A stretch of DNA of 61,259 bases, the filler included, from Asterionella formosa (Eukaryota): the NCBI GenBank assembly GCA_002256025.1. It is 12 parts of 12 records of this genome, joined end to end, with 100 filler letters (N's around TTAATTAATTAA, not from the genome) between each part and the next. Parts side by side here need not be neighbours in the genome. Positions count along the whole stretch, not along the records: positions 10,268 to 15,293 come from NKIB01013253.1; 11 more parts are not named here. One strand, written 5' to 3'. Below, piece after piece: positions 5,038 to 43,064 of this stretch. The first letter of the stretch is position 1; each line of letters begins with the position of its first letter. The translations under genes were made by a program, and so were the position numbers. A model generated the notes under the pieces. It was not told where the DNA came from and did not search any database. It saw nothing but the letters and a program-made list of their open reading frames with translations.

Positions 5038-5137
5038 NNNNNNNNNNNNNNNNNNNNNNNNNNNNNNNNNNNNNNNNNNNNTTAATTAATTAANNNNNNN
5101 NNNNNNNNNNNNNNNNNNNNNNNNNNNNNNNNNNNNN
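5038..5137. other. Artificial contig spacer N44-TTAATTAATTAA-N44 (also 10168-10267, 15294-15393, 20416-20515, 25535-25634, 30648-30747, 35760-35859, 40864-40963, 45965-46064, 51065-51164, 56163-56262)
   Basis: Eleven identical 100-nt spacers with a six-frame stop core; the flanking contig lengths decrease monotonically. Confidence 0.98.
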
Positions 5138-8756: not shown

Positions 8757-10166
8757 TTAGACGGGACATTGAGACCTTGTATAGCACTGCTTTTGGCATG
8801 TTTGATAAACAAAGGGATGATTCCTTCCTGTTGCGTCAGTTTTCGAGTAATCGATCAGGGGACAAAACTTGTTCATGTTATTCCTGCCAATAAACGAGCA
8901 TACCTGAGTCTTCCATTTCGTTGGACTTATGCCGACTCCTGTGAACAAAAACGTCATGGTTGGTAGATTATTGCAAGTCTTGACAAATGACAATGTCGAG
9001 GGGCATCCGAAACCTGCGATCCGGACTTGATCCAGCTGAGTACAACCAGCATATAGTGGCTGGATTGTGGTCGCCGCAGGAGGAGGAAGGGGAGCAGCAG
9101 TAGGGGGAGAAGTTGGAGCAAACGAAGGGGAAGAGGTGGGAGCAAAAGTAGGAGGTGGGGTTGGAGCAAGCGAAGGGAAATAGGTGGGAGCAACAGTAGG
9201 GAAAGGGGTTGGAGAGTTAGTGGGGGATCTTGTTGCAGCAACAGTAGGGGGAGGAGTTGGAGACTTCGTGGGAAACGGTGTCACAGCAACAGTGGTTGGG
9301 GCAGATGTTGGGGCCGCAGCTACGATTTTAGCAGTGCTCCCCTCACTATTGGTTCCAGTGGCACCGGCCAACTTGATTATAAGAATCATGTTTTTCTCTT
9401 GTGGGCCGACTTCAATCGAAATGCCCGTGGGGTATTCTGTCGCACCAGCATAGCCCTTGGTGTTGGGCTCTGGTAAGACCTTTCCACTGTTGAGGTAGAC
9501 ACCATTGTTATCAATCTTATATGCTTGAGTGGCTCCTAAGGTATCGGAAACGGGGCGTTGACGGAACGCATCAGTGCGGTCACCCTTGTTGACATTCCTT
9601 TCCATGTCGAATTTTCCGTCGCCCTGGACCAAAGCTACACGGTAATGAATGCGGCAAGTGCCACCGCCACAAACACCTTCTGTTTGATATCCAATTACAC
9701 CCACACCAAGATCATCGGACTCATCAATATGCCAAATAGCAATACCAGAACGATCCTTGTTCGGTGAATCCAGGTGATGGGCTAATTTAGCATCGTATCC
9801 ACATGGGTATCTGTTTTCCACCAAGAAGAATTCCCCAGGTTTCATATTGTAGGCAATCTTGTAAATGGTGTCGCCGTCGCAAGCTGCAAGGATTTTGACA
9901 TTGGTTTCAGCCGCAAGGACGTTCACTATATTGACCCAACCAAGCTGCATCTTTGCCCAAGCTGACATGAGAGGTGGGTAGAGTTGATCTCCATACCAGC
10001 CCCACATATTCGCTGTAAAGAAAGGAAGCAGAAGATGCTTCTTGTTAGCACACGAATTGTTGCCATCTGCAACCATTTCACGAAAGTAATCAATACAATA
10101 CGTACCCATAAGACACCAAGTTCCAATACCAGCTCCTCCAACTGTATCGTACAAATCAGGAAGTCC
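8757..10166 (-). CDS. 5'-truncated M6-family (immune inhibitor A-like) metalloprotease with Pro/Thr linker and Cys-rich C-terminal module; probable intron 10013-10105
   Basis: The contig edge reads GLPDLYDT (the segment that follows HExxH in M6 proteases), then GIGTWCLM-A-NMWG after splicing, SAWAKMQLGWV, EFFLVENR, GIAIWHIDE, VALVQGDG, then PT/PS repeats. HExxH itself lies beyond the contig end. Confidence 0.8.
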   Translation of the reverse strand, partial: GLPDLYDTVGGAGIGTWCLMGTYCIDYFREMVADGNNSCANKKHLLLPFFTANMWGWYGDQLYPPLMSAWAKMQLGWVNIVNVLAAETNVKILAACDGDTIYKIAYNMKPGEFFLVENRYPCGYDAKLAHHLDSPNKDRSGIAIWHIDESDDLGVGVIGYQTEGVCGGGTCRIHYRVALVQGDGKFDMERNVNKGDRTDAFRQRPVSDTLGATQAYKIDNNGVYLNSGKVLPEPNTKGYAGATEYPTGISIEVGPQEKNMILIIKLAGATGTNSEGSTAKIVAAAPTSAPTTVAVTPFPTKSPTPPPTVAATRSPTNSPTPFPTVAPTYFPSLAPTPPPTFAPTSSPSFAPTSPPTAAPLPPPAATTIQPLYAGCTQLDQVRIAGFGCPSTLSFVKTCNNLPTMTFLFTGVGISPTKWKTQVCSFIGRNNMNKFCPLIDYSKTDATGRNHPFVYQTCQKQCYTRSQCPV

Positions 10167-10361
10167 CNNNNNNNNNNNNNNNNNNNNNNNNNNNNNNNNN
10201 NNNNNNNNNNNTTAATTAATTAANNNNNNNNNNNNNNNNNNNNNNNNNNNNNNNNNNNNNNNNNNNNAACGATCCCTTTTCACTAAGGATTACAAAAGTA
10301 GTAGCAAGTGGTATTTTGAACCCAATCATCAGAAAATGGTTGGTGTAGCCATCATGTGCAC

Positions 10362-11273
10362 TTACAATCCACTGAGGTAGCTACCAAATGGACCTCCACG
10401 AGCTTTAGCTGGAGGCGTTGGGACAATGGTAGGAGTAGTATGGACCTTACCTGGCAAGGAATTGAGGTAGCTAGACCCAAAGACAGATCCACTAGTAGCA
10501 GCGACAGGAGCAGCAATAGCAGCAGGTTTGACTGTAACAACAGGAGTAGAATGGACTTTTCCTGGCAAGGAACTGAGGTAACCAGATCCAAAGGCAGAAC
10601 CTTTTGCAGGCGGTGCTGCAGCGGCAGCCGTGACTACAACCACAGGCGATGAGAAAGTCTTCCCTGGCAAGGAACTGAGATAGCTAGTTCCAAAACCAGA
10701 ACCACTTGCAGGAGTAGAAGGCTTGGCCGCAACAACAGGAGTGGAAAACGTCTTGCCTGGCAACGAGCTCAGATAGCTAGCGCCAAATCCAGCTCCAGTG
10801 GCAGGAGCGGCGGGCTTCGCTGCAATGACAGGAGTCGAGTGGACCTTTCCTGGCAAGGAGCTGAGATAACCAGTGCCAAATCCAGTTCCGCCGGTGGAGG
10901 TCGAGACTGGGGCGACAGGCGTTGCAGTGAAATCAGGGGTAGAAAATGTCTTTCCTGGCAAGGAGCTGAGATAGTTTGCTCCAAACGTGGAGCCACTAGC
11001 AGCTGGGGCAGCAGGGGCCACTGGCTTGACCTCGATAACAGGAGTTGAATGGATCTTCCCAGGCAAAGAACTGAGATAGCCAGCGCCAAAGGCAGCTCCT
11101 TGAGCAGGAGCGCTAGCTTTAGGTGGCCCTGAGATGCTGTTGAGATAAGATGAAAGCGCCGTGGGCTGATTGACAGAGCCAAATCTTGTCGCAATCTGAT
11201 GAACAGTGCAAGTCTGGAAGGCCAATGAACCTGTTGCGAGTAGTAGAACAAGGGCAGCGGACGCTTTCATCAT
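10362..11273 (-). CDS. Low-complexity repeat protein with signal peptide and ASAF-like plastid motif; 7 FGxxYL(S/N)SLPGKxx(S/T)(T/S)P repeats
   Basis: MMKASAALVLLLATGSLA|FQ... (Phe at +1), then A/P/S/T/G-rich spacers separating conserved repeats; ends FGSYLSGL*. About 303 aa. Confidence 0.85.
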   Translation of the reverse strand: MMKASAALVLLLATGSLAFQTCTVHQIATRFGSVNQPTALSSYLNSISGPPKASAPAQGAAFGAGYLSSLPGKIHSTPVIEVKPVAPAAPAASGSTFGANYLSSLPGKTFSTPDFTATPVAPVSTSTGGTGFGTGYLSSLPGKVHSTPVIAAKPAAPATGAGFGASYLSSLPGKTFSTPVVAAKPSTPASGSGFGTSYLSSLPGKTFSSPVVVVTAAAAAPPAKGSAFGSGYLSSLPGKVHSTPVVTVKPAAIAAPVAATSGSVFGSSYLNSLPGKVHTTPTIVPTPPAKARGGPFGSYLSGL

Positions 11274-12199
11274 GATCAGCAAGTTAGAACTAACGATCGA
11301 GACGGATGTATGTCCTTCGATAAATTAGCTACATTATGATATTCTTCCTTTCTCGTTGAACTCATCTGCATCAACCACTTCGTCTCGCCTAAGTACATAC
11401 TGATTCCGCGGTATGCCGGTACCGGTAGTTCAATTGACGTACTTCACTCTACTGACCGTACATAAACATATTCGAGTATAGATATGCTGATGGGAATAAT
11501 AATGATACACAATCGTCGTCACCGTCACTGCAACAACTGACTTTGTTCATTCCTACATACACAGGTAGGTACAGTGATACGTAAATACAGCCAGTACTTC
11601 CTACCTGGGCGATGACGCCAACATTCGCAAGGATACAATATTTCCTGGGGGGCGAGCAAAAAAGGATTTGGTATTGCTGTGATTAAATGCCGGTTGCAGT
11701 CATTGTCACCTATTTGAGATGACGATCTTATCGTTCCAACGGATCTGTATATCGTGCCCCCAGTGAAAACTTGCTCCCTTAGCTCACCTACGTCAGCGAT
11801 CTGTAAAGTATACGTCAGAATATGAGTATGGTGCACAAAATAGTGTGATTCTGTTACCAGGCCTGGTACCAGTACCGGTAAAGCATAACGGTACGCTCAC
11901 TGCTAGAAATGCAATTCGCAAATAACAGCACGTTTCGATTGCAGTCTGCTGCCGCTCGTCTTCTTGCTGCTGGGAAAATGCATTGCTTATTAATGTACCC
12001 CTCTACATGTATAAAATCATACACCGGTGATATACCGGTACTCCTTTCAGGTTTCGTGTCACTTAACAGTCCAAGTAGTCCGTGCATAAACCAATTTTAT
12101 GTAAGACGAGAAACAAGAGAGCAAAGAAGGCAGGCACGTCATGCACTGGTTCTTAGTTCTTAGTAAAGTATGCCAGTATTAAAAAAACCAAATGGTAGG

Positions 12200-12790
12200 G
12201 TTAAGGTTTACCTCTCTTTCCTCTGATTACACACAGCCTCATGTCTCTCATAAGTTGTATTTTAGCACCTACAACATGCTTTCCCTTCAGGGGACTTGTG
12301 TCTCATAGCAAGACTTCTAGTGAAGTCACTCTAGATTTGTACAGGTCCATCACAGTAAGTCTGAAAGCCCCCATTGAGGGTGAGCCAAAATTAGTAACCT
12401 TATTGTTGTCTTGTTAGAATTGAAACCCACCACATGTGAGCAGGAAGAAGATGTTTCCAATCAATTTTGGCACAATCATTCGTGTGAGAGTAGAACTGCA
12501 CAGAGAGTATTTTATTGCAGGTCTAACCATCACTATGTATGATGCCATCACTTCATTATATTTAAGATTCCATGCTGCAATATTCTGACTCAATGACATC
12601 CCTTTCGGAATAAAAATTGAGCTTGCCTTCATCATTTTTATTCCTGTTTGGTGCACATTTTGCTCCTAGCTAGATTTCACAGACCTTCTCCAACATGCTT
12701 TTGCAGGACTACAACAAACTTCTGATACTCACTTCCCAAAGTCAATTGTATCTTCCTTGATCTTTGATTTGGTCAGGAAATGTTTACACC
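12200..12790 (-). mobile_element. Degenerate non-LTR retrotransposon (LINE) RT-distal fragment
   Basis: Interrupted pieces such as YIVMVRPAIKYSLCSSTLT and FGSPSMGAFRL resemble LINE RT C-terminal motifs (Y...P.L.Y.L; FGP..GGLGL). Boundaries approximate. Confidence 0.45.
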
Positions 12791-12932
12791 AAGAGCTGAA
12801 CAACCACATTGATTGTTCGATATGGTTTTGAAATTAAGCAATTACATTTCCATTTTAAATTCTTCGTACACCAAATTTTAAGGATGCCCCTCAACGTGGC
12901 AATTGTCGCTGGCTTGTGATGCAAGATGTGAT

Positions 12933-15017
12933 TTAAACATTCGAAAAAAGTGAAGACTGTACAGAGGGTAAAGGAGTTTCTTTGTGTTCCAAATTTGGAC
13001 AATTAACCTCAAGAGTTGGGCAAAGATGAGTTGCTTCCATTTCCCTTTTTGTCAGCGACTGCTGCTCCACCAACTTGCATGCCTTACTTTCCAATAGTGA
13101 CTGAAGGAGATTGACAAGGAGGACAACACACAGCAAGTTCATATATGCATCCAAGTCATTCAACGGTCCAATTAGCATCAAGAAAATATGTCCCACCACG
13201 ATGACTCGTCGACTCAATTTTCGCTGCCTGTATTGATAGTCACTAGGCAAGTCAGCCTCTCTGTTGGCAGCATTCTTGAGAGTGTCCAAGACCTCTCGAG
13301 CTCGTTCTTTGCCAAGCTGTTTAGTGGCATGATGTTCTCGTTCCCGACAAAGGTAGTCATCATTGAGGGCCATGCGAACCTGTTCACGACGGCGCTTCAG
13401 CCTCTCCTTGTCATATGTGTAGTATAGACCTCCAGGGAGACGATGATAACGGATCCAAGATTGAAGCATCAGAGATGCAATGAGAAGTGCACCAACAAAA
13501 TGAACATATACCGCTCTTCCTTTATCAATCATTGTAGTATCCAGAGAAGCAATGGCTTTTGGGTATAATTCCATGGCCTGCCAACACTTGGAGCCTTCAA
13601 GCAGGTCTGTTGCGTGTCTCATGATGCAACTCATAGCATCATTATCCTCAGAAAAGGGAAAATTGATCTTGCTTAAGGAACTATTGATGTCAGGAACATT
13701 CCAACCATTCTGTCGCCGGATAACAATAGATTCCAGAACAGCATCCACAATTGGCTGTTGTAGCTTTTTAGCAAGATTATTATAAATACTAGTGACAATT
13801 AAGTCCTCATGAAATTCCAATGTTGCTTGTTCGATAATCCCCATGAAGGTGTTGATGTCCCACAAATGATTTGGTAGTTTTGTGATTTGAGTTTTCATAT
13901 TACCAGTATATGTTTCCACATCGAAGAAAGTGTCGGAGGTACTATTATCTCGTATGGCAAAAAAGTCCACAAGATTTTGCACTGTTCGGTTGCCAGTTCC
14001 ACCACCAAAGAGGGAGAGAAGCTCTGTGGTACTGTAAACAGAAGACTCAAAACCATACGAAAACTCAAGTGTTGCAGGACTCTTTGGGAATCTTTGTAGA
14101 TATATGTCAAGGCGAGCAGCAGATGAATAAATAATGTTCTTGAGGGTGCTCTTCCAAGCAGATGATAAAATATTGGAACTCTCATTTATGGTTTTAGGTG
14201 AAGCATTGCACATGGGAGAAGAACATACATAAAAGCTGGAACCAATATCATCAAAGTGGACAAACCTATTTTGGTGTGTGTTGTTTCCAAAATCACCAAA
14301 AACCATCGCGTCATTATCATTACAACACCTTAAATGAAGTGTCCTTGTGCTGGAGTTGTTCAGTAGCCATTGGTGTTGGTCGTCAATGGGGTCTACCGAA
14401 TCAAAGTAGTAAATTAATTCCTGATAGTGTAGGTTGAAACCAGCAGTGTTATTTGTTTCATGAATCTGGTACATTGAATCATCGTTCTGATAGAATGTTC
14501 TTGTGGAGCAATTGTCATGCTTTGAAGTGACAACACCAGCGAACCTGATGGAACATTTCTTTTCCACTAATTTCTTGTTGGCATACCAGGACCAGGTATA
14601 CTCATGATCAAGCGCATATGATTGAAAGCCTCCAAGCAGAGGAGTGCTATATTGCTCTGCCAGGACAGCATTATTGACTGACTTCAGCCATTCAGGAATA
14701 TCGGGTGAGTTTGCAGAATATGACATGAGCTTGGGAAAGGACATTTCTGAATACCCAAGGCTGCATGTGCTTATGCTAGCTACTTCCTCCTTGTCGTCAA
14801 AGTGCCGCAGCTCTTCCTGGCTAGACCAATGAAGCCAAAGTAACCCATCCCGACTTGAATCATTGTAAGGCAGATCCGAATATTGACTTCCGCAAAGGAC
14901 ATAGAAATCGGGTGTACAGCAGGACTCCAAGAAACCATCGATCTCTCTTTTCGAGCTTGTCTCTGCATAAATGAAATCTTGGACGCCATCGGAATGAAGG
15001 ACTACAAGGAGAAACAT
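12933..15017 (-). CDS. Hypothetical membrane protein (large N-glycosylation-site-rich domain plus C-terminal hydrophobic helices)
   Basis: 694-aa ORF with many NxS/T sites and hydrophobic segments (VYVHFVGALLIASLML, VIVVGHIFLMLIG, LLCVVLLVNLL). No family recognised; start uncertain. Confidence 0.65.
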   Translation of the reverse strand: MFLLVVLHSDGVQDFIYAETSSKREIDGFLESCCTPDFYVLCGSQYSDLPYNDSSRDGLLWLHWSSQEELRHFDDKEEVASISTCSLGYSEMSFPKLMSYSANSPDIPEWLKSVNNAVLAEQYSTPLLGGFQSYALDHEYTWSWYANKKLVEKKCSIRFAGVVTSKHDNCSTRTFYQNDDSMYQIHETNNTAGFNLHYQELIYYFDSVDPIDDQHQWLLNNSSTRTLHLRCCNDNDAMVFGDFGNNTHQNRFVHFDDIGSSFYVCSSPMCNASPKTINESSNILSSAWKSTLKNIIYSSAARLDIYLQRFPKSPATLEFSYGFESSVYSTTELLSLFGGGTGNRTVQNLVDFFAIRDNSTSDTFFDVETYTGNMKTQITKLPNHLWDINTFMGIIEQATLEFHEDLIVTSIYNNLAKKLQQPIVDAVLESIVIRRQNGWNVPDINSSLSKINFPFSEDNDAMSCIMRHATDLLEGSKCWQAMELYPKAIASLDTTMIDKGRAVYVHFVGALLIASLMLQSWIRYHRLPGGLYYTYDKERLKRRREQVRMALNDDYLCREREHHATKQLGKERAREVLDTLKNAANREADLPSDYQYRQRKLSRRVIVVGHIFLMLIGPLNDLDAYMNLLCVVLLVNLLQSLLESKACKLVEQQSLTKREMEATHLCPTLEVNCPNLEHKETPLPSVQSSLFSNV

Positions 15018-15675
15018 TGTAATTCGCTGTTAGTTAGCTGTACCATGATGCATTCAGTAATAGTTGTAAAATGGCAGTAGTCAAATTGTAACAGTCGATG
15101 ATGACGATATTCGTACATTTCTTGTAACCTTGAACAGAAATCAATGAAAGAAGCACAGTCAGAAGTACGGGGCGTTCCCACTGATGGAAGAGGTATGCTT
15201 TATGCACTGGGATCTTGCTGATGGTAATGCTACTCATTGAAATGTTGAATAATGCTAATAAATGTGTTTCCAAATCGTTTTAAGTTTTTATGANNNNNNN
15301 NNNNNNNNNNNNNNNNNNNNNNNNNNNNNNNNNNNNNTTAATTAATTAANNNNNNNNNNNNNNNNNNNNNNNNNNNNNNNNNNNNNNNNNNNNTATTTCT
15401 TGGTTTTGCAACTTTTCAACCATTTCTACTTCAGAAGTGATGCATGTCTCCCACATTTCCGCCGGTATTTTCATTTATCGCATGAATTTGTTCAATCAAT
15501 GAATGAGAATCACTGATTTCTTCTTCATTATCAACGATTTCAGGAGAATGAGGAGCAAAATACGACACTGGACGATGGAACTGTGACTCTGTAGGAATAG
15601 AGTCTTCATCCGCGAAGAACAACTGTTTGGGTTTCCTCGGCTCTTGGAAAGCAATCTTTCCTTCTTTTCAATCTT

Positions 15676-42444: not shown

Positions 42445-43064
42445 NNNNNNNNNNNNNNNNNNNNNNNNNNNNNNNNNNNNNNNNNNNNNNNNNNNNNNNN
42501 NNNNNNNNNNNNNNNNNNNNNNNNNNNNNNNNNNNNNNNNNNNNNNNNNNNNNNNNNNNNNNNNNNNNNNNNNNNNNNNNNNNNNNNNNNNNNNNNNNNN
42601 NNNNNNNNNNNNNNNNNNNNNNNNNNNNNNNNNNNNNNNNNNNNNNNNNNNNNNNNNNNNNNNNNNNNNNNNNNNNNNNNNNNNNNNNNNNNNNNNNNNN
42701 NNNNNNNNNNNNNNNNNNNNNNNNNNNNNNNNNNNNNNNNNNNNNNNNNNNNNNNNNNNNNNNNNNNNNNNNNNNNNNNNNNNNNNNNNNNNNNNNNNNN
42801 NNNNNNNNNNNNNNNNNNNNNNNNNNNNNNNNNNNNNNNNNNNNNNNNNNNNNNNNNNNNNNNNNNNNNNNNNNNNNNNNNNNNNNNNNNNNNNNNNNNN
42901 NNNNNNNNNNNNNNNNNNNNNNNNNNNNNNNNNNNNNNNNNNNNNNNNNNNNNNNNNNNNNNNNNNNNNNNNNNNNNNNNNNNNNNNNNNNNNNNNNNNN
43001 NNNNNNNNNNNNNNNNNNNNNNNNNNNNNNNNNNNNNNNNNNNNNNNNNNNNNNNNNNNNNNNN
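42445..43064. other. Scaffold gap of 620 N
   Basis: Run of N without the spacer core. Confidence 0.97.

Follow-up and report, generated by a model that had tools for sequence, protein, structure and literature searches.

How Rubisco is condensed in most diatoms is an open question, and the linker PYCO1 is, to our knowledge, restricted to some pennates. The question addressed here is whether a gene of the diatom Asterionella formosa (assembly GCA_002256025.1) encodes a further protein of this kind. The gene lies on the minus strand at positions 10,362 to 11,273 of a stretch of 61,259 nucleotides, to which we refer as the window, and its product, P0001, carries a short motif that recurs at regular intervals. 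A preliminary description of this DNA had proposed that P0001 is a new, plastid-targeted protein in which repeated stickers alternate with spacers. We propose that P0001 may be a plastid-imported, multivalent scaffold of the pyrenoid matrix with motifs that bind Rubisco. This reading, which draws on the sequence and on analogies with known pyrenoid proteins, could in our judgement fall either way.

Architecture of P0001

The features of the coding sequence (CDS), with protein positions in amino acids (aa), are listed below; the repeats were delimited with regular expressions (regex), and helices were predicted with AlphaFold2 (AF2).

10362..11273, minus strand: complete single-exon CDS of P0001, 303 aa plus stop; an uninterrupted, intron-free open reading frame (ORF)
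11220..11273, minus strand: signal peptide, aa 1-18 (MMKASAALVLLLATGSLA); cleavage before F19, read from the sequence; AF2 helix 3-20
11124..11219, minus strand: conserved N-terminal module, aa 19-50 (FQTCTVHQIATRFGSVNQPTALSSYLNSISGP); transit-peptide-like composition; holds the degenerate motif 0
10986..11090, minus strand: repeat 1, aa 62-96 (FGAGYLSSLPGKIHSTPV plus spacer); regex
10881..10985, minus strand: repeat 2, aa 97-131 (FGANYLSSLPGKTFSTPD plus spacer); regex
10788..10880, minus strand: repeat 3, aa 132-162 (FGTGYLSSLPGKVHSTPV plus spacer); regex; in the tandem array with a period of 93 nucleotides (nt)
10695..10787, minus strand: repeat 4, aa 163-193 (FGASYLSSLPGKTFSTPV plus spacer); regex and tandem-array search
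10593..10694, minus strand: repeat 5, aa 194-227 (FGTSYLSSLPGKTFSSPV plus spacer); regex and tandem-array search
10482..10592, minus strand: repeat 6, aa 228-264 (FGSGYLSSLPGKVHSTPV plus spacer); regex
10389..10481, minus strand: repeat 7, aa 265-295 (FGSSYLNSLPGKVHTTPT plus spacer); regex
10365..10388, minus strand: C-terminal half-motif, aa 296-303 (FGSYLSGL-COOH); regex

The regex searches re-found the layout given in the preliminary description: nine motifs of the type YL.[SG][LI] (at residues 43, 66, 101, 136, 167, 198, 232, 269 and 299), seven of which are part of FG..YL[SN]SLPGK units, and the ending FGSYLSGL*. The seven units start at residues 62, 97, 132, 163, 194, 228 and 265, and are therefore 31-37 aa apart (35, 35, 31, 31, 34 and 37). 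Each unit continues with a two-residue tail (IH, TF, VH, TF, TF, VH and VH, in this order) and then with (S/T)(T/S)P. The copy at residue 43 is degenerate (SSYLNSIS), and the copies are separated by spacers of 13-21 residues composed of A/P/S/T/G. In the DNA, the tandem array with its 93-nt period is found at 10657-10889. Chance does not produce this pattern: the 12-residue unit had no match in shuffles of the mature protein (n = 20,000), and YL.[SG][LI] occurred on average 0.012 times and at most twice in 20,000 shuffles, as compared with the nine observed.

Mature P0001 has a mass of ~28 kDa and an isoelectric point (pI) of 10.04. Together, A, S, G, P and T account for 63% of the residues of P0001, which contains one Asp, one Glu, one Cys and no Trp. 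The two acidic residues and the lack of a recognisable folded domain had been described before, and a Pfam scan likewise gave no domain at its cut-off. In the AF2 model, based on an alignment of eight sequences, the mean predicted local distance difference test score (pLDDT) is 45.6, with values below 50 for 224 of the 303 residues, and the only helices are that of the signal peptide and a short one at residues 24-32. Together with the variable spacers, this bears out the proposal of an intrinsically disordered chain built of stickers and spacers.

Selection on the Motif

That the motif is selected had been argued from its conservation between drifting spacers, and the codons agree. In ten columns, all seven units have one and the same amino acid, yet synonymous differences occur there in 71 of 210 codon pairs, and the units use all four Gly codons for the Gly preceding Lys in PGK. 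The spread of synonymous codons in invariant columns argues that it is the protein sequence that is conserved, and that neither recent duplication nor gene conversion accounts for the likeness of the units. The mean pairwise identity among repeats is 77% for the 18-aa cores and 45% for the spacers.

A second copy of the CDS is available in L001, a metagenome contig that is colinear with it and 97% identical (19 of 912 nucleotides differ). In the cores, the differences amount to four synonymous changes and one non-synonymous change, the latter at a variable x position, as compared with six synonymous and eight non-synonymous changes in the rest of the CDS; these numbers are small, and they point the same way. 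In addition, relatives of P0001 retain the motif while its copy number changes from about 3 to 16. Judged from these patterns, the FGxxYL(S/N)SLPGK motif is under selection.

Relatives and the Subfamily Motif

A word-indexed search with P0001 retrieved three related proteins, of which P0002 and P0003 are colinear with it from the signal peptide to the C-terminus (E 1.7e-32 and 8.3e-30; 49% identity). A profile search among 1.84 billion representatives retrieved 14 proteins at E <= 0.001; given so few matches, the subfamily appears to be small. A further relative, P0024 (632 aa), came from one metagenome scan. A search of the ESM Atlas gave no usable match, and a PDB sequence search with the profile gave chance-level matches only, the best being a heliorhodopsin (E 0.044).

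P0002, P0003, P0005-P0009 and P0024 have in common the signal peptide, an N-terminal module (RxGxRNQxTA..YL(D/N)SIS) and the repeat unit. The N-terminal module of P0001 (aa 19-50) aligns with those of P0002, P0003 and P0024, and also with the N-terminal ends of P0004, P0011 and P0015, which are built differently. The ending FG(S/N)YLxGL* closes those sequences of the group whose C-terminus is available (P0002, P0003, P0006, P0007 and P0024), and the final 80 residues of P0007 are almost identical to those of P0001. With the strict regex, three full units were counted in P0007, four in P0002 and in P0003, seven in P0001 and 15 in P0024; besides these units, degenerate copies are also present.

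The consensus of the subfamily, based on 41 instances in nine proteins, is Y-L-(S/D)-(G/S)-L-P-G-K-T-F-(S/T)-T-P-V-(F/V/I). Tyr and the following Leu are present in all 41 instances, Leu(+4), Gly and Lys in 40 each, and Pro in 36. The preliminary description treated the xH and TF forms of the unit as two subtypes. This is not supported in that form: the tail position is F in 33 of the 41 instances and H in six, all of the latter in P0001 and its close relative P0007, and xH is thus better seen as a variant of one lineage, derived from TF as the ancestral form.

A second architecture was encountered in P0004, P0011 and P0013 (and in the partial sequences P0009 and P0015). These proteins share the signal peptide and N-terminal module, and then have one to three SYLDxLPGK motifs, an acidic spacer rich in Glu, Val and Pro, a hydrophobic segment rich in Gly (FTAGVxGGVAGFAxAGP), and a C-terminal half of ~200 aa of predicted long helices. 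In an AF2 model of a protein of this type, the long helices span residues 246-448, at a low-confidence mean pLDDT of 40.6, and no Pfam family was assigned to the type. Such proteins may be motif-bearing membrane tethers.

A Predicted Plastid Presequence

The signal-peptide cleavage sites were placed by eye according to the -3/-1 rule. P0001 reads SLA|F at this position, and in all 23 N-termini of the family (23/23, by eye) a small-x-small site is followed by F (15 proteins) or L (8 proteins). An aromatic residue or Leu at position +1 after the signal peptide denotes import across the diatom plastid envelope (ASAFind-type rules). In P0001, no acidic residue is present in the 30 residues after the cleavage site. 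The presequence is thus of the plastid type, as had been proposed, and from its features we infer that P0001 is imported into the plastid. Since the N-terminal stretch is unusually conserved, both within the subfamily and in differently built proteins, it may be more than a transit peptide.

A Transitive Link to the Pyrenoid Protein DPC2

The sole Pfam match of P0001 is PF25195, the family of Diatom Pyrenoid Component 2 (DPC2), with a score of 21.2 bits (E 4.1e-4). DPC2 was first described in Thalassiosira pseudonana (Nam et al. 2024; bioRxiv 10.1101/2023.10.26.564148). According to the available part of this source, DPC2-mEGFP localises solely to the pyrenoid matrix, and DPC2, an abundant protein, and RbcS are the hubs of an affinity-purification mass spectrometry network. 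The same source describes DPC2 as Rubisco-interacting, gives its function as unknown, and considers it a strong candidate for matrix assembly; its authors also state that none of the pyrenoid proteins had a ~60-aa repeat. Our literature searches retrieved no later study characterising DPC2, nor a biological paper containing the repeat-motif strings.

Higher scores against PF25195 were obtained for P0002 and P0003 (40.8 and 46 bits; E 3.1e-10 and 7.5e-12, respectively). True DPC2 members were reached via P0010 and P0019; they include P0019 (224 bits), P0025 (313 bits) and P0021 (84.8 bits), and a cluster that carries the label Skeletonema menzelii shares 87% identity with P0019. In the comparisons that follow, P0019 and P0025 stand in for the T. 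pseudonana protein. Alignment of the profile of the P0001 subfamily with that of true DPC2 proteins by hhalign gave a probability of 94.9% (E 4.2e-8), the alignment spanning 76 columns and placing the motifs in the same register, and BLASTP of P0001 against P0019 gave E 4e-6. When P0002 and P0003 were compared with four DPC2-type proteins by phmmer, scores of 10-36 bits were obtained, which were reached by none of 500 composition shuffles.

The motif array of the DPC2-type proteins is G-(A/P)-G-(I/M/V)-x-S-Y-L-D-(A/S)-(L/V)-(P/S/G/A) (148 instances in 16 proteins). P0001 and these proteins share the motif register G-φ-x-S-Y-L-D/S-x-L-P and the type of presequence. With respect to the DPC2 motif, Y-L and L(+4) are scored as kept in nine of nine copies in P0001 (the regex allows L or I), and the φ-G prefix is kept as well. 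Both P0001 and DPC2 have a signal peptide followed by F and a long disordered sequence rich in A/S/G/P/T; DPC2 carries many copies of a G-x-G-φ-x-S-Y-L-D-x-L(P) motif, and its profile is significantly related to that of the P0001 subfamily.

There are also clear differences. Where the DPC2 motif has Asp(+2), every copy in P0001 has Ser or Asn, and the core is followed by an extension, LPGK(T/V)(F/H)(S/T)TPV. P0001 is basic (pI 10), whereas the DPC2-type proteins have a pI of ~4 (4.05-5.1 for P0010, P0017-P0019, P0021 and P0023). The motifs are spaced regularly by 31-37 aa in P0001, as compared with mostly 18-25 aa in the DPC2 type. Moreover, a Cys-containing segment of P0019 and P0025 is absent from P0001, and the last motif of P0001 is its exact C-terminus.

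Because the direct phmmer scores of P0001 are not significant while those of P0002 and P0003 are, the link to DPC2 is a transitive one. Judged by these comparisons, P0001 is in, or at the edge of, a DPC2-like superfamily, outside Pfam's DPC2 family. Direct membership in the latter was considered and rejected, the phmmer comparison not being significant. The preliminary description presented P0001 as a candidate new linker; it is not an unrelated protein, since the superfamily has an existing Pfam model and its discoverers flagged DPC2 as a linker candidate. The earlier suggestion of a connection with the pyrenoid has gained indirect support through the relatives that match this model. In view of its score (21 bits against a cut-off of 70), its basic charge and the extended motif YL(S/D)xLPGKTFxTPV, we read P0001 as representing a new basic, regularly spaced DPC2-like branch.

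Some further observations concern the DPC2-type proteins themselves. In P0018, P0020, P0022, P0050, P0062, P0064 and P0010, motif 1 starts at the predicted cleavage site (for example, S|FSYLESL), so the +1 Phe of the import signature is also the first residue of a motif. Arrays of the DPC2 type are joined to an I29-like domain in P0017, P0021 and P0023, and to PterinBD-DUF4346 in P0048. In P0078, a DPC1 motif (PF25193; 30.3 bits, cut-off 27), a hydrophobic segment and a DPC2 region (112.5 bits) are followed by a coiled-coil-like C-terminal tail, and two diatom pyrenoid component modules are thus present in one chain.

Comparison with Rubisco Linkers

PYCO1 is the Rubisco linker of Phaeodactylum tricornutum, with a reported pI of 10.03 (PMC10288592). 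As described in the available parts of two sources, its sticker is the repeated KWSPRGGS, which binds the small subunit and has an essential Trp (PMC13655443, PMC10288592), and the protein is specific for diatom Rubisco (PMC13655443). P0001 resembles PYCO1 in being plastid-targeted (predicted, in the case of P0001), in consisting mostly of disordered tandem repeats with aromatic stickers, and in its pI (10.04 against 10.03). Both also have a Tyr in the context G-x-G-Y (GTGYNP in PYCO1, FGTGYL in repeat 3 of P0001), a likeness that extends over four residues only. P0001 differs from PYCO1 in having neither KWSPRGGS nor Trp, and the earlier statement that its motif is unlike the KWSP motif thus holds. 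Its repeats measure 31-37 aa, as compared with ~80 aa in PYCO1, and there is no detectable sequence relation between the two.

The properties used in FLIPPer-type searches for linkers are, according to the accessible text of a preprint on Ulva, at least three repeats, a largely disordered chain and a pI above 8 (bioRxiv 10.64898/2026.07.16.738900). P0001 has all three, with its seven repeats, low pLDDT over 224 of 303 residues and strongly basic pI; the class so defined is a functional one and not a homology family.

The EPYC1-type Rubisco-binding motif is a Trp-containing basic helix, whereas P0001 has no Trp and no predicted helix at the motif. With EPYC1, CsLinker and SUPA1, as these are described in the available text of the sources, P0001 shares the logic of stickers and spacers, at least three repeats, disorder and a pI above 8 (PMC13655443; bioRxiv 10.64898/2026.07.16.738900). 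Those linkers have five or six stickers and P0001 has seven to nine. Their sequences are unrelated to that of P0001, and their stickers are predicted helices ~40-60 aa apart, whereas those of P0001 are closer together and have no AF2 helix. They also act on green-type Rubisco, whereas the host of P0001 has the red-type form ID enzyme.

In Chlamydomonas, a Rubisco-binding motif is reported to be common to the linker and to membrane and starch tethers (bioRxiv 10.1101/2023.10.26.564148; PMC10288592, both for the text available). The diatom motif is similar in that it makes up a pure repeat protein and also occurs, one to three times, in proteins with a hydrophobic or coiled C-terminal half (P0004, P0011, P0013 and P0078), and in that it is often the exact C-terminus. 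The sequences of the two motifs are unrelated, the diatom motif lacks Trp, and for the latter, binding to Rubisco is suggested by analogy.

A Model for P0001 and Its Alternatives

In the model that we propose, P0001 would be encoded in the nucleus and imported into the plastid stroma by means of a diatom-type bipartite presequence. The mature protein would be a basic, intrinsically disordered chain presenting eight or nine copies of a motif with the core φ-G-x-x-Y-L-S-S-L-P-G-K. Each motif would act as a weak sticker, its aromatic and Leu side chains and its Lys docking on a component of the pyrenoid matrix, for which Rubisco is the most probable candidate. A single P0001 molecule could then bridge several Rubisco holoenzymes and contribute to condensing or organising the matrix, in the manner of EPYC1, CsLinker and PYCO1. 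Residence in the pyrenoid and contact with Rubisco are suggested by the data on DPC2 of T. pseudonana, and the ability to cross-link by the architecture of the protein.

Several points weigh against this model. The score of P0001 lies far below the Pfam cut-off for DPC2 (21.2 vs. 70 bits). After bias correction, phmmer comparison of P0001 with the four DPC2-type proteins gave -1.3 to -14.2 bits, and its scores were reached by 1, 30, 35 and 0 of 500 shuffles, respectively. P0024, the other relative of the S type, has no DPC2 match. The core motif is short (~6-10 residues) and the sequence is of low complexity, so that convergence is conceivable. As the DPC2-type proteins are acidic and have 18-25-aa spacing, the physics of P0001 differs from that of the only member that has been localised; moreover, the role of DPC2 is only a candidate one, and its contact with Rubisco may be indirect. 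AF2 predicts neither helix nor strand at the motif, and no secondary structure past residue 32. Finally, the contigs from RNA libraries described below fall short of strict proof of transcription.

The alternative that survives best is that P0001 is a disordered protein associated with the plastid or pyrenoid but not a Rubisco cross-linker. Its motifs would bind the PyShell, the pyrenoid-penetrating thylakoid, acidic DPC2-type proteins or CbbX, or they would be the address tag of a client or adaptor. We regard this as a real possibility, albeit on the unlikely side. It accords with the caution of Nam et al., who, in the text available, call DPC2 only a candidate, and a general docking or address code would fit the many architectures in which the motif is found (with an I29-like domain, with DPC1 and a hydrophobic segment, with PterinBD-DUF4346, and with a hydrophobic/helical half). 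The opposite net charges of the subfamily (pI ~10) and the DPC2-type proteins (~4) would, in addition, permit mutual pairing. Conversely, one or two motifs would be enough for a pure client, and the natural valency ranges from about 3 to 16; with its regularly spaced and numerous motifs, its basic charge and no other domain, P0001 has the look of known Rubisco linkers as these are portrayed in the accessible text of a recent review (PMC13655443).

A broader reading is also conceivable. Because the motif moves between architectures and is often C-terminal, it behaves like a docking code. Y-L-(D/S)-x-L(-P) could play in diatoms the part of the Rubisco-binding motif of Chlamydomonas, as a general pyrenoid sticker and address code used by acidic DPC2-type proteins, by membrane or coiled-coil tethers (of the P0004/P0011/P0013 type, and P0078) and by the basic, regularly spaced subfamily, which had not been described before, the last of these being the actual Rubisco-condensing linker in diatoms without PYCO1. 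We put this broader proposal forward tentatively and think it rather unlikely to be correct as a whole.

It is improbable, in our view, that the resemblance to DPC2 is a convergence of low-complexity sequences and that P0001 is a disordered protein restricted to its lineage and with an unrelated role, such as self-association via FG/Tyr stickers without a specific partner. The insignificant scores of P0001 against the DPC2-type proteins after bias correction and the small size of the subfamily (14 proteins in the profile search; no usable match in the ESM Atlas) speak in its favour; the intermediates P0002 and P0003, which are significant to both sides, the hhalign probability, and the motif register and presequence type in common with the DPC2-type proteins are at odds with it. 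Least probable of all, and very unlikely in our view, is a secreted, mucin-like protein of the cell surface (frustule or mucilage) with an ER signal only, O-glycosylated A/P/S/T spacers and a structural motif: a signal peptide followed by Lys-containing low-complexity sequence rich in Pro/Ser/Thr/Ala would suit it, but F or L directly follows the predicted cleavage site throughout the family, the 30 residues past the site in P0001 lack acidic residues, relatives match the pyrenoid family DPC2, and P0001 has only one Cys. The Rubisco-binding scaffold is the reading of P0001 that we favour.

Gene Model, RNA-Library Contigs and Neighbouring Sequences

Public sequencing runs matching the stretch or part of it number 20, from 15 studies, and include 10 RNA libraries. 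Four of the latter, which bear the labels algae, lake-water, freshwater and estuary, were compared with the gene, and all four contain contigs on it, which are near full length in two (X3 and X8). The X3 contig (1016 nt) covers positions 10301-11314; the X8 contig (1062 nt) extends over 10301-11325, with loose ends that resemble adaptors. They define the following feature:

10301..11325, minus strand: putative mRNA of ~1.0 kb; span of the near-full-length RNA-library contigs

The CDS is colinear with these contigs, without a joint, which fits an unspliced mRNA of ~1.0 kb. As contigs do not show true transcript ends, their ends are a weak hint of the ends of the mRNA. Positions 11326-11700 had no contig in the four libraries, and we draw no inference from this gap.

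In run X7, a small poly(A) library, contigs of 33-37 nt that are 90-95% alike lie over the motif-coding parts at 10412-10795, with a very high word depth (up to ~3e4). They may come from a highly expressed paralogue or from another organism sharing motif-coding sequence. The L001 copy has an in-frame TGA at codon 129 (L001:440-442) in place of the GGA of the window copy, which may reflect either an error in sequencing or assembly or a null allele.

The window consists of 12 pieces of ~5.0-5.1 kb each, joined by N44-TTAATTAATTAA-N44, a six-frame stop linker, at 11 joints (for example, 5038-5137, 10168-10267 and 15294-15393); a gap of 620 N is present inside one piece (42445-43064). Because the window is pieced together, the real genomic context of the repeat gene is 10268..15293 only, and a joint separates genes that are not genomic neighbours. 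The other pieces contain ordinary eukaryotic nuclear genes, among them those for F-actin capping protein beta, eIF2 gamma, an SNF2 helicase and carnitine acyltransferase. The sole other long ORF on the contig of the repeat gene, at 12933..15017 on the minus strand, encodes 694 aa with hydrophobic segments near the C-terminus. On another contig, an ORF of 450 aa at 8757..10109 on the minus strand extends into a joint; its product combines a long region rich in Pro/Thr/Ser/Ala (PTxxPT repeats) with a C-terminal part rich in Cys. Neither product has a Pfam match at E <= 1e-5.

Significance

A 2026 review lists, in its accessible text, PYCO1 as the sole diatom linker (PMC13655443), and the available part of the T. 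pseudonana study reports that no classical repeat linker was found and names DPC2 as the lead candidate, without a mechanism (bioRxiv 10.1101/2023.10.26.564148). P0001 offers a clean, minimal, basic sticker-and-spacer relative of DPC2 with a sharply defined motif of ~20 residues, and its family offers a natural valency series (about 3, 4, 7 and 16 copies) together with motif-bearing putative tethers. With such a repeat protein, motif and series at hand, the linker hypothesis becomes directly testable. Red-lineage pyrenoids account for a large share of ocean CO2 fixation. If the hypothesis is true, the sticker code of these pyrenoids would be defined, and an extra part would become available for pyrenoid engineering.

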